A stretch of DNA of 64,000 nt from Octopus vulgaris. Lineage: Eukaryota. Below are positions 52,134 to 54,528 of this stretch, one piece after another. The DNA lies in contig OX597817.1 of the NCBI GenBank assembly GCA_951406725.2, forward strand, positions 65,472,001-65,536,000, read 5' to 3'. Under the pieces are notes generated by a model. That model did no database searches, was not told the origin of the DNA, and saw only the letters and a program-made list of their open reading frames with translations. Numbering within the stretch: position 1 is the first letter of the stretch; every line of letters starts with the position of its first letter. A program made the position numbers and the translations under genes.

Positions 52134-52729
52134 TTAAACAGCATTTCCTTTTCAGAGTATAGCTAAAAATGTGTTCACTAAAACCACGTACCTGTAAGTT
52201 GCCTTACATCTACCTAACACCGCTTGATGCTTCCTTTGATTAATTACTTACATTACCAAGGTTCGGTCGTTTATGTCTCTCATGCAAATCAGCGCACAGT
52301 AATTTAGTTCTGTCTTAATTTGCGTACAATGAATATAGCTATAAGCTATTATTCTCTCTGTTGTCCAGAAAATGGTCTCAGATGAAGCAGCAAATAATAC
52401 CGAAACTAATCAGGTCTGTTTCTTTTCATAATCACAAAGAGAAAACTTTTGTTGTTGACTACTACTACTACTACTACTACTACTACTACTCCTACTACTA
52501 CTACTACTACTACTACTACTGCTGCTGCTGCTGCTGCTGCTGCTGCTACTGCTACTGCTACTGCTGCTCCTATGATGTTTTTCATGATGAAGATCATAAA
52601 CACGATAATAACGATAATGATTATGCGGATCATCATGGTTATGATGATAATGACGGTGGTAATGATAATCCTTTCTGCTATACATTATTTACATTTGACG
52701 GATATTTGTCCTTATCGTGTTTGTTGTTA

Positions 52730-52773
52730 ACACAATGTTTCGGCTGATATACCCTCCAGGCTTCATCAGGTGT
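52730..52773 (-). ncRNA. Hammerhead motif, left-arm copy with two substitutions
   Basis: Minus strand ACAC-CTGATGA-A-GCCTG(gagggtatat)CAGCC-GAAA-CA-TT-GTGT. It has one helix II mismatch and CG>CA in helix III. Confidence 0.6.
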
Positions 52774-53144
52774 CTTGGGGGAGATTTCGAACCTGAGTTA
52801 TCATTCCTAAGGTATTTTTCAATGTTGTTGTTGTTGCTGATGCTGTTGTTGTTGTTGTTGTTGTTGTTGTTGTTGTTGTTGTTCTTCTTCTTCTTCTTCT
52901 TCTTCTTCTTCTTCTTCTTCTTCTTCTTCTTCTTCTTCTTCTTCTTCTTCTTCTTATTCTTCTTCTTCTTCTCCTCCTCGTCCTCCTCCTTCTTCTCATT
53001 ATTGTTATTATTATTATTATTATTATTATTATTATTATTATTATTATTATTATTATTATTATTATTATTATTATTATTCACTGCCTAGAATCGAACTCGG
53101 AATCTTGGGGTTAGTAGCCCGCGGTCTTAACCACTATGCCCACT

Positions 53145-53210
53145 GGCATATGGCGTGGTGGTTAAGAGCGCGGGCTACTAACCTCAACATTCCATGTTCG
53201 ATTCCAGGCA
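53145..53210 (+). promoter_or_regulatory. tRNA-derived head with Pol III A/B boxes (mirror copy on minus strand at 53082-53140)
   Basis: A-box TGGCGTGGTGG, anticodon-arm-like GGG-CTACTAA-CCT and B-box GTTCGATTCC. There is no complete acceptor stem, so it is not a functional tRNA gene. Confidence 0.7.
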
Positions 53211-53460
53211 TATAATAATAATAATAATAATAATAATAATAATAATAATAATAATAATAATAATAATAATAATAATAATAATAATAATAATAATAATAAT
53301 AATAATAATAACAATAACAACAACAATAACAACAACAACAACAACAACAACAACAACAACAAAAACAACAACAACAATAATAATAATAATAATAATAATA
53401 ATAATAATAATATCGAAAAATACCTTAGGAATGAGAACCCAGGTTCGAAATTTTCCCAAG

Positions 53461-53504
53461 ACACCTGATGAAGGCTGGAGGGTATATCAGCCGAAACGTT
53501 GTGT
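53461..53504 (+). ncRNA. Minimal type I hammerhead ribozyme, right-arm copy
   Basis: ACAC-CTGATGA-A-GGCTG(gagggtatat)CAGCC-GAAA-CG-TT-GTGT. Helix I ACAC/GTGT, helix II GGCTG/CAGCC, palindromic AACGTT helix III, GUU site after 53500. Confidence 0.85.
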
Positions 53505-54528
53505 TAACAGCAAACACGATGAGGACAAATATCCATCAAATGTAAATAATGTAAATAATGTACATAATTCCTCATCTCTTAAATATAGAACTTTCTGCTA
53601 TACTTATTTTATCGGCTTCGAAAGGATGGAAAGTACAATCGATCTCGGCGGCATTTGAACACAGAACGTAAAGACGGACGAAATGCTGCTAAGCATTTTA
53701 TCCGGCGTGCAAAGGGATCAGTCAGCCCACTACTTTATTGACGGTAGTAATGATAATGACAACATCAACGAAAACGGCATCAACGAAGATGATAGAGATG
53801 ACACTGATGATGATGATGATGGCGATGACAACCACAAGGATGACGATGGCGATAACAGTGATGACAATAATGTCAACGACGACGATGACGATGATGACGA
53901 CGGTGATGATGACGACGACGATGACGATGATGGGGATGGTGATGCTGATGAAGATTAGGGTGACAACCATTATAATGATAGTGATATTGGTGACAAAAAC
54001 GAAGGCAAAAAAACAGCTGGATGTCGTATATTAAAAAAAATTATTATGAAATTGCATACAGCCGTTAGATACGAGATTCGTCACTCTATGACAAAGTACT
54101 CTTTACTATCAACCCCTAAATGGTGTTATTTGTAAAAGTTCAAAAACAAGAGCAGACGAAATAAAATATTTCTATTTATTTCGTCTGGTTGTCTACAATT
54201 CCTAATGAAATATTAATATTGTTAAGTTTAAAAAAATGTATCTCGTCTAGAAGAGGTGGAAGATTTCGTTTGGGAATTATAAAACATAAAAACAATTTGG
54301 TAATTCATACATACATGCATACACACATACATACATACATACATACATACATACATACATGCATACATACATACATACAGCCATACATGCATACACATTT
54401 CTCAGTATATATTTATATAGATTTATCTGCTTATCTGTCAATCAATCATTCAATCTATCTATCTATCTACATTGCTACGCGCGCGCACGCACACACGCAC
54501 ACATACACACACATATATCTGTGTGTAT

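Follow-up and report, generated by a model that had tools for sequence, protein, structure and literature searches.

In the 64,000-nucleotide stretch of the Octopus vulgaris genome analysed here (the window; contig OX597817.1, positions 65,472,001 to 65,536,000 of assembly GCA_951406725.2), two arms lie head to head between direct repeats. Each of them is formed by a tRNA-like head, a trinucleotide microsatellite and a conserved cassette containing a hammerhead ribozyme. An earlier note on this DNA considered the unit to be a candidate non-autonomous hybrid of a SINE and a retrozyme, mobilised by a Penelope-like element (PLE). The question raised by this locus is whether such a SINE-like head in front of PLE sequence denotes a separate element or belongs to the PLE itself. 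The explanation that we favour, with a probability of about 0.65, is that the unit comes from a Penelope retroelement with a tRNA-type promoter and that the short palindromes are run-off cDNAs from the 5' end of its RNA.

Both arms run outward from the centre at 53142-53143, from head through microsatellite to cassette, and their components were confirmed in the window sequence at the coordinates given in Table 1. Alignment of one arm with the other gave 92% identity over 143 nt for the cassettes and 86% for the heads, and it verified that the hammerhead is intact in the right arm and carries two substitutions in the left one. The right hammerhead comprises CTGATGA at 53465, GAAAC at 53493, the GUU at 53498-53500 and a self-complementary ACGU helix III; it thus has the CUGANGA/GAAA core, stems I and II, palindromic helix III and NUH site of the minimal type I. 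Both arms have head, microsatellite and cassette, but they are asymmetric, as the 3' tail of about 30 nt, which the earlier note did not mention, is present on the right alone. An A-box and a B-box had been assigned to each head; the B-boxes are found in both arms, but the left head is missing 7 nt of its A-box. The left cassette corresponds to the N-terminal coding part of the PLE ORF, with a frameshift close to the start, and the window junction has the loop of a hairpin found where UTR and head meet in the autonomous element described below.

Table 1. Features of the palindromic unit and its borders, in window positions.
Feature	Position	Strand	Remarks
Left copy of the flanking direct repeat (TSD), 13 bp	52671..52683	+	Final 3 bases shared with the end of the tail-less arm
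Left arm cassette	52681..52823	-	Family cassette positions 1-142, without tail
Left minimal hammerhead	52729..52774	-	Two substitutions: stem II G>C; helix III palindrome ACGT>ACAT
Left microsatellite	52823..53078	-	AAT/GAA/AAC, read on the element strand
Left tRNA-like head	53079..53141	-	B-box 53096-53087; A-box short by 7 nt; profile E 0.013
Head-to-head junction TATGCCC-AC-(T)GGCATA	53135..53150		No strand; recurs across the family
Right tRNA-like head	53144..53210	+	A-box 53151-53161, B-box 53196-53205; putative Pol III internal promoter
Right microsatellite	53212..53412	+	AAT/AAC
Open frame, 54 codons from ATG 53431	53431..53592	+	N-terminus of Poseidon-type PLE protein
Right minimal type I hammerhead	53460..53505	+	Within the coding frame; predicted cleavage after 53500
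PLE tail, about 30 nt	53563..53592	+	Single arm (right) only
Right TSD copy, 13 bp	53591..53603	+	Direct repeat of 52671..52683
Unrelated host SINE remnant	53601..53726	-	Abuts the insertion; outside the element

The flanking direct repeat was also corroborated, and its 13 bp occur exactly twice in the 64-kb window. However, the unit does not interrupt a SINE remnant, as had been thought. When the empty site was rejoined, 103 of 118 SINE matches began in the last bases of the TSD and none lay on the left flank. Since the SINE likeness starts at the end of the TSD and is missing on the left, the unit sits at the edge of the remnant. Elsewhere in the window, a second repeat at 51822-52140 appears tRNA-headed by eye and is unrelated to the PLE head. 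In addition, R4/Dong-like LINE ends and host SINEs were seen inside or adjoining AAT tracts, the element's own microsatellite included (L024, L025, L011, L006, L007 and L010; window 22928-23701).

The genome (2.8 Gb, 227 contigs) was searched with a 20-mer of the cassette, giving 7,482 exact matches against 0 for its reversed control. Therefore, the family is not due to chance, and the window structure is a member of a family with thousands of copies. The earlier note had suggested looking for co-occurrence of head and cassette, for other palindromes flanked by TSDs and for a PLE sharing the cassette, and each of these was found. The cassette followed the head in 29 of 30 loci selected by the head, while a head on the same strand lay within 1.5 kb in 23 of the 30 selected by the cassette (window included); in several of the cassette loci without a nearby head, another element had inserted into the AAT tract. 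As for the palindromes, 53 out of 87 loci taken in order of genome position had an inverted two-arm structure. The tail was present in one arm in 47 of these, in neither in 6 and in both in none. TSDs of at least 8 bp are common, being found in 24 of the 47 one-tail loci compared with 1.0% of mismatched flank pairs. A tail of 30-40 bp at a single end and an inverted truncated partner are given as hallmarks of PLEs in the available text of PMC8557442, and by their one-tail asymmetry and their TSDs the octopus palindromes bear this PLE signature.

The window unit, being an inverted pair, departs from a non-coding retrozyme in direct tandem, and internally deleted direct tandems are a minority in the family. 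These were observed in L399, L402, L403 and L400 (at about 1300-2100 in element orientation), where the cassette is followed by the first 235-265 nt of the ORF past the tail and then by head and cassette again. As L399 and L403 share one junction, a non-coding derivative has been copied more than once. Sequencing runs with at least one fifth of the words of the element (L214:1100-3760) stem from four organisms, two of which are represented in the mapping to L214 described below, so that the family is probably common to related species.

The PLE sharing the cassette is an autonomous one. The head, the (AAT)n tract, the hammerhead and the tail are the pseudo-LTR (pLTR) and ORF start of a single autonomous Poseidon-type PLE and not a separate SINE. 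The unit of this PLE is made up, in this order, of head, (AAT)n, ATG/hammerhead/tail, RT, GIY-YIG-type endonuclease (EN), a UTR of about 50 nt and then the head again. Five loci of the initial sampling already had a Poseidon-type endonuclease end immediately upstream of the head. Of 30 loci selected by EN, 28 showed a head no more than 30 nt past the EN/UTR end, and in 25 a cassette came within 400 nt. Downstream, the tail leads into the ORF in frame in L300 and L214 and directly precedes ORF sequence in 29 of 39 further loci, while L427 is a complete pLTR-ORF-pLTR copy and L440 a tandem one. These results agree with the earlier note in identifying the 3' module as a hammerhead-bearing pseudo-LTR of a PLE. 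They do not support a distinct non-autonomous hybrid, as head and microsatellite lie within the autonomous PLE and the cassette forms the beginning of its ORF.

The coding part has the features described for EN+ PLEs (PMC8557442), namely a single ORF with RT as well as a GIY-YIG-type endonuclease at the C-terminus, a DKG motif and a CCHH zinc finger, with cysteines between GIY and YIG, and pseudo-LTRs by tandem arrangement, which carry a hammerhead and overlap the ORF start. Several copies contain the DKG motif LPADKGNAT and the zinc finger VYSIPCSCGRLYKG...EH...DH, and L297 retains a stop-free RT-EN frame of 569 aa with the DKG, the RT motifs and a CxC-H-H EN. This was the longest stop-free frame, none of the copies examined having an intact ORF, and copies lie about 5% off the column majority. 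Using Pfam, RVT_1 reached 38.6 bits in L168 and 27.7 in L297, the latter below the cut-off, and GIY-YIG matched the homolog P0069 and was not detected in L297. Another homolog, P0003 (847 aa, from another data set), showed 55% identity over RT-EN, and its N-terminus was identical to the window cassette frame at 14 of 22 positions (E 2e-5). A metagenome scan with P0003 gave no match; an alignment scan yielded 80 related PLE loci from other animals. The CX2-5CxxC linker zinc finger of Neptune/Nematis is absent from the RT-EN linker of L297, and a linker zinc finger (CNCRNKNKC) is present in the other PLE family of the genome. No named Penelope or Poseidon reference was found among the homologs collected or in PDB; the Penelope/Poseidon label is drawn from domain anatomy.

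Two other candidates for the partner were rejected. The first was L005/L031, where the RT upstream of the cassette is that of a decayed PLE, and it was attributed to chance insertion into AAT. The cassette was present in the 1.5-kb flanks of 0 of 23 other matched loci, and among 12 extended stretches it appeared in two (L095 and L100), distant from EN. In L031 (1000-2240) the AAT tract that holds a cassette belongs to an unrelated, Asn-rich PLE in a decayed state. The second was a young abundant PLE of 955-960 aa, whose hammerhead differs and which lacks the cassette, and it was kept as a control. This second PLE family of the genome (L133-L144, e.g. L134:2914-5781, L137, L138 and L140) is young, very abundant and Asn-rich and has the linker zinc finger. 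It forms multi-kb palindromes whose arms are mostly 99% alike, with private variants in common, and stem II of its hammerhead is long.

Although the head belongs to the coding element, the short copies might nevertheless be an independent PLE-dependent SINE, that is to say, solo Pol III transcripts re-mobilised in trans. They outnumber the long copies by about 5:1 and retain the A and B boxes, the hammerhead and the tail, and the deleted junction common to L399 and L403 indicates that some non-coding derivatives are recopied. However, long and short copies show the same divergence (5.2% for long, 5.1% for full-head short and 5.1% for the other arms), and none of 25 polymorphic columns separated long arms from the others, the smallest p being 0.048, at a CpG. 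Three linked non-CpG sites define two subfamilies, and both of them occur in long and in short forms. A tRNA-SINE would form a non-autonomous lineage apart from its partner; here 28 of 30 loci place the head within the coding element. Moreover, to argue by analogy, the RNA of PAc, a PLE of Anolis, requires ORF sequence past its priming sites according to the accessible part of the published work, and solo copies are without such sequence. For these reasons an independent SINE seems unlikely to us, and the separate hybrid lineage of the earlier note is not upheld by the equal divergence or by the diagnostic variants, which are alike in both forms.

The arms of one insertion agree at the subfamily sites in 29 of 31, 45 of 56 and 53 of 73 loci, respectively, and private variants are common to both arms at 4.2%, against 1.7% after shuffling. 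This fits short copies deriving from the sources of the long copies, with both arms often copied off one template. The concordance between arms could partly reflect successive subfamilies or gene conversion.

Regarding the head, an A/B-box sequence at the 5' end, as in tRNA-derived SINEs, was detected by a genome-specific profile and by pairwise z scores. Comparison with tRNA-Cys and tRNA-Arg gave pairwise z values of 5-7, head position 1 aligning to tRNA position 1, and the profile built from the tRNAs of this genome recovered 8 heads at E 2e-4 to 0.6; it was used instead of a strict A/B-box pattern, which missed positive controls. The A- and B-box columns agree with the Pol III consensus. 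ARAGORN called no tRNA in the window, Rfam gave no tRNA or hammerhead among the 150 of 228 window matches listed nor in four loci, and a phage BLAST search for the parent tRNA produced no match.

The 5' edge of the head is a sharp boundary. Exact 20-mer counts were 7,482 for the cassette, 5,148 for the head and 1,024 for the UTR about 55 nt upstream, so copy number falls five-fold at this edge, with ends at -6 to +1, a larger drop than that between cassette and head across the microsatellite. The 87 loci contain 99 head-bearing arms. Of these, 13 extend into the UTR, 42 have their start within head positions 1 to 5, and the other 44 are truncated deeper in the head. Full-head short arms number 71: in 43 the match to the element stops between -1 and -4, where unrelated sequence adjoins, and the other 28 are hairpin-type (TGCCC mirror). 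In the 43 non-hairpin arms the element was matched at -1 by 38 (C/T), at -2 by 22, at -3 by 21, at -4 by 16 and at -5 by 8, the last being background, while UTR letters beyond -7 were found in 1 of the 28 hairpin-type arms. Three template-jump junctions (L399, L402 and L403) start at the -6 G. Ends at the -6 G and the -2 A, which follow pyrimidines and lie 9-13 nt before the A-box, are those expected of Pol III starts.

The same boundary could arise if the head were a captured relic with no promoter role and if, on long templates made by Pol II or by read-through, reverse transcription stalled or the cDNA folded back where the UTR/head hairpin lies. In the autonomous element this hairpin (CCATA-AT-TGCCC-AC-GGGCA-TATGG) is located at the border between UTR and head, and it would account for the junctions of the 28 hairpin-type arms out of 71; palindromes at pLTR 5' ends, together with self-priming, have also been described for rotifer PLEs in the portion of that literature available. 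In addition, five full heads were found upstream of ORF sequence; 4 of them run on into the UTR and 1 starts at the head, which indicates that many templates began elsewhere and that tandem or circular templates are common. However, the hairpin is weak (-6.4 kcal/mol), and 43 of the 71 arms end in its loop, not at the base of the stem, and are joined to unrelated sequence. Short arms are nearly devoid of UTR letters past -7, and both the intact boxes and the absence of runs of four T would be left unexplained. We consider it improbable that the head is a mere relic. In long copies (e.g. L430), the roughly 35 nt of UTR just upstream of the head look like a degraded version of its 5' part in inverted orientation, a hint that the PLE may have gained this head via a palindromic insertion.

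A cut by RNase P on long transcripts, 5' of the tRNA-like fold, with reverse transcriptase running off the cut end, would place the boundary where head position 1 coincides with tRNA position 1, and several arms do start at or beside +1. However, most ends keep 1-4 element bases upstream of +1 and some begin at -6; besides, the acceptor stem is lost and ARAGORN calls the head at a relaxed score only, which makes this origin very improbable. Taken together, the 5' boundary, the age and variants shared by long and short copies and the lack of TTTT point to the head as the likely Pol III promoter of the PLE and to the short palindromes as probable run-off products.

This lack of T-runs, which are Pol III terminators, extends across the whole unit. 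The longest T-run in the 2,692 majority columns of a full-length copy is 3, where 5.0 runs of four or more T (T4+) were expected by composition (P0 0.007; 0.039 given 13 T3 runs). By letter, majority-column runs of at least four number 31 for A, 8 for C, 1 for G and 0 for T, runs of G thus being rare too. When copies were pooled, T4 occurred at 0.39/kb versus 1.51 after synonymous shuffling, and the TTT share of Phe codons was 0.26 versus 0.54 in other two-fold codons, a bias not found in the other PLE, R4-like and CR1-like ORFs. Within the RT-EN columns TTT and TTC stand at 3:12 (p 0.02), and the T4 null gave P 0.03 when codon-aware and P 0.15 with a pure synonymous shuffle; all 3 Phe of the N-terminal part are encoded by TTT and this part shows no bias, and the CR1-like control ORF is also T4-free over 870 nt. 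Among the 80 related PLE loci, two ORF segments, from one family with a T-rich UTR, are without T4, and 21 of 24 loci have T4 between the ORF end and hammerhead+90. None of the 80 has a convincing tRNA head (best non-family match 25 nt, E 0.014), and the best outside example of a T4-free ORF, that of L321, goes with a T-rich UTR and no head, so that it provides no replicate. Downstream of another related PLE, a 135-bp tandem repeat (L324:7175-7942) is tRNA-like to ARAGORN at a relaxed threshold only. Coming from one lineage and one ancestral sequence, the lack of T4 is suggestive only.

With respect to the hammerhead, the core and ACGTT are intact in 32 of 125 arms, the losses being mostly at CpG. 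At cassette 88-94, where cleavage is predicted, lay 16 of 101 5' ends against 5.7, a weak excess that is confounded by a GTTAAC palindrome, and no such enrichment was seen in the genome-order set (2 of 27). Three raw RNA-seq runs of one organism and one contig set were also mapped to L214. Depth tracked copy number, both orientations were equal and most reads entered varied flanks. No pile-up of starts or ends was detected at the head or at the hammerhead in the three runs, and the signal looks like read-through of old copies.

A cycle for this element can be proposed by comparison with PAc, in which, according to the accessible text, the hammerhead overlaps the ORF start and reverse transcription initiates at two internal sites bounding the tail (PMC11167929). 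Pol III would start at the head. As in the anole element, the PLE protein would nick both target strands and reverse transcription would begin at two internal sites, around cassette positions 142-157 and 183. This would leave one arm without the tail and the other with it, between TSDs of 8-17 bp, with uncleaved RNA probably acting as the main template. Priming near the 5' end of the uncleaved transcript would then result in run-off at the -6 G or the -2 A, 9-13 nt before the A-box, and hence in arms that go from head to tail. By folding back on GCCC-AC-GGGC, an end at -6 might start the second arm, and a tandem or circularised RNA would let the reverse transcriptase pass the head and produce long copies. 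In most templates the hammerhead is probably inactive, and it is predicted to cleave only as a dimer or with assistance from protein. The strongest form of this proposal, namely that Pol III makes the whole coding RNA of about 2.7 kb, that its coding sequence has been purged of oligo-T and that thousands of SINE look-alikes are shed as run-off, strong-stop-like cDNAs, is tentative, and we place it somewhat short of even odds.

The comparison with known systems, in each case as far as the available text of the sources goes, places the element closest to the Penelope/Poseidon PLEs. It shares with PAc (PMC11167929) and Adineta Pen2a (PMC3846280) a single ORF with RT and, at its C-terminus, a GIY-YIG-type domain, a pLTR that includes the first codons, a hammerhead over the ORF start, a one-end tail of 30-40 nt, an inverted 5'-truncated partner and TSDs of about 8-17 bp. 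However, the Adineta pLTR promoter is described as TATA/Inr-like in the part of PMC3846280 available, and that of D. virilis Penelope as internal and TATA-less, with a DPE and an intron, in the corresponding part of PMC2377424. Unlike those Pol II-like promoters, the octopus element has in this place an A/B-box head and a microsatellite, with no T4. Schistosoma Sm-alpha and Sj-alpha combine a Pol III-type promoter and a hammerhead in a short repeat, but the review available in part describes them as tandem, non-coding and cleaved to monomers (PMC6765202), whereas the short copies in octopus represent the 5' end of a PLE with coding capacity and are scattered as tail-asymmetric palindromes flanked by TSDs. 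Non-LTR retrozymes also contain a type I hammerhead derived from a PLE pLTR, but the accessible text defines them by direct tandem units, each with a hammerhead (bioRxiv 10.64898/2026.07.22.740005), while the octopus arms are inverted, have a tRNA-like head and form no lineage apart from the coding element.

The TRIMp3 elements Cassandra, Helenus and Ajax have a Pol III promoter derived from a small RNA in their terminal repeat. However, they are described in the available portion of PMC10886601 as short non-autonomous non-coding LTR elements, whose autonomous partners are argued to need Pol II, and the octopus promoter-like head lies within the coding element itself. Finally, tRNA-derived SINEs resemble the short copies in the A/B-box head, the sharp 5' boundary, the TSDs and the high copy number, but the octopus sequence has a PLE ORF start as its 3' part, without a LINE-type tail, is palindromic and has its head in common with an autonomous element. 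Among the titles and abstracts searched, none was on a tRNA-headed or Pol III PLE, and a prior entry may exist in Repbase, Dfam, subscription papers or supplements. The available portions of two octopus repeat surveys mention no such element. What is new here is the five-fold drop in copy number at the head edge, the age and variants shared by long and short copies and the T4-free unit of 2.7 kb.

To our knowledge, Pol III promoters belong to short non-coding retroelements, coding ones using Pol II. If the reading given here is true, a PLE that codes for protein, has a tRNA-type promoter and lacks a Pol III terminator over its ORF would break this rule, how an uncapped RNA gets translated would become a question, and the PLE hammerhead would possibly gain a role. 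The family offers thousands of genomic footprints of the PLE cycle, including two priming sites, one-tail asymmetry, arms from the same template and an RNA 5' end that can be mapped. It also illustrates that a SINE-like annotation need not mark a SINE family, as it can stem from the by-products of a PLE, and it shows a route by which genuine PLE-dependent SINEs could arise.
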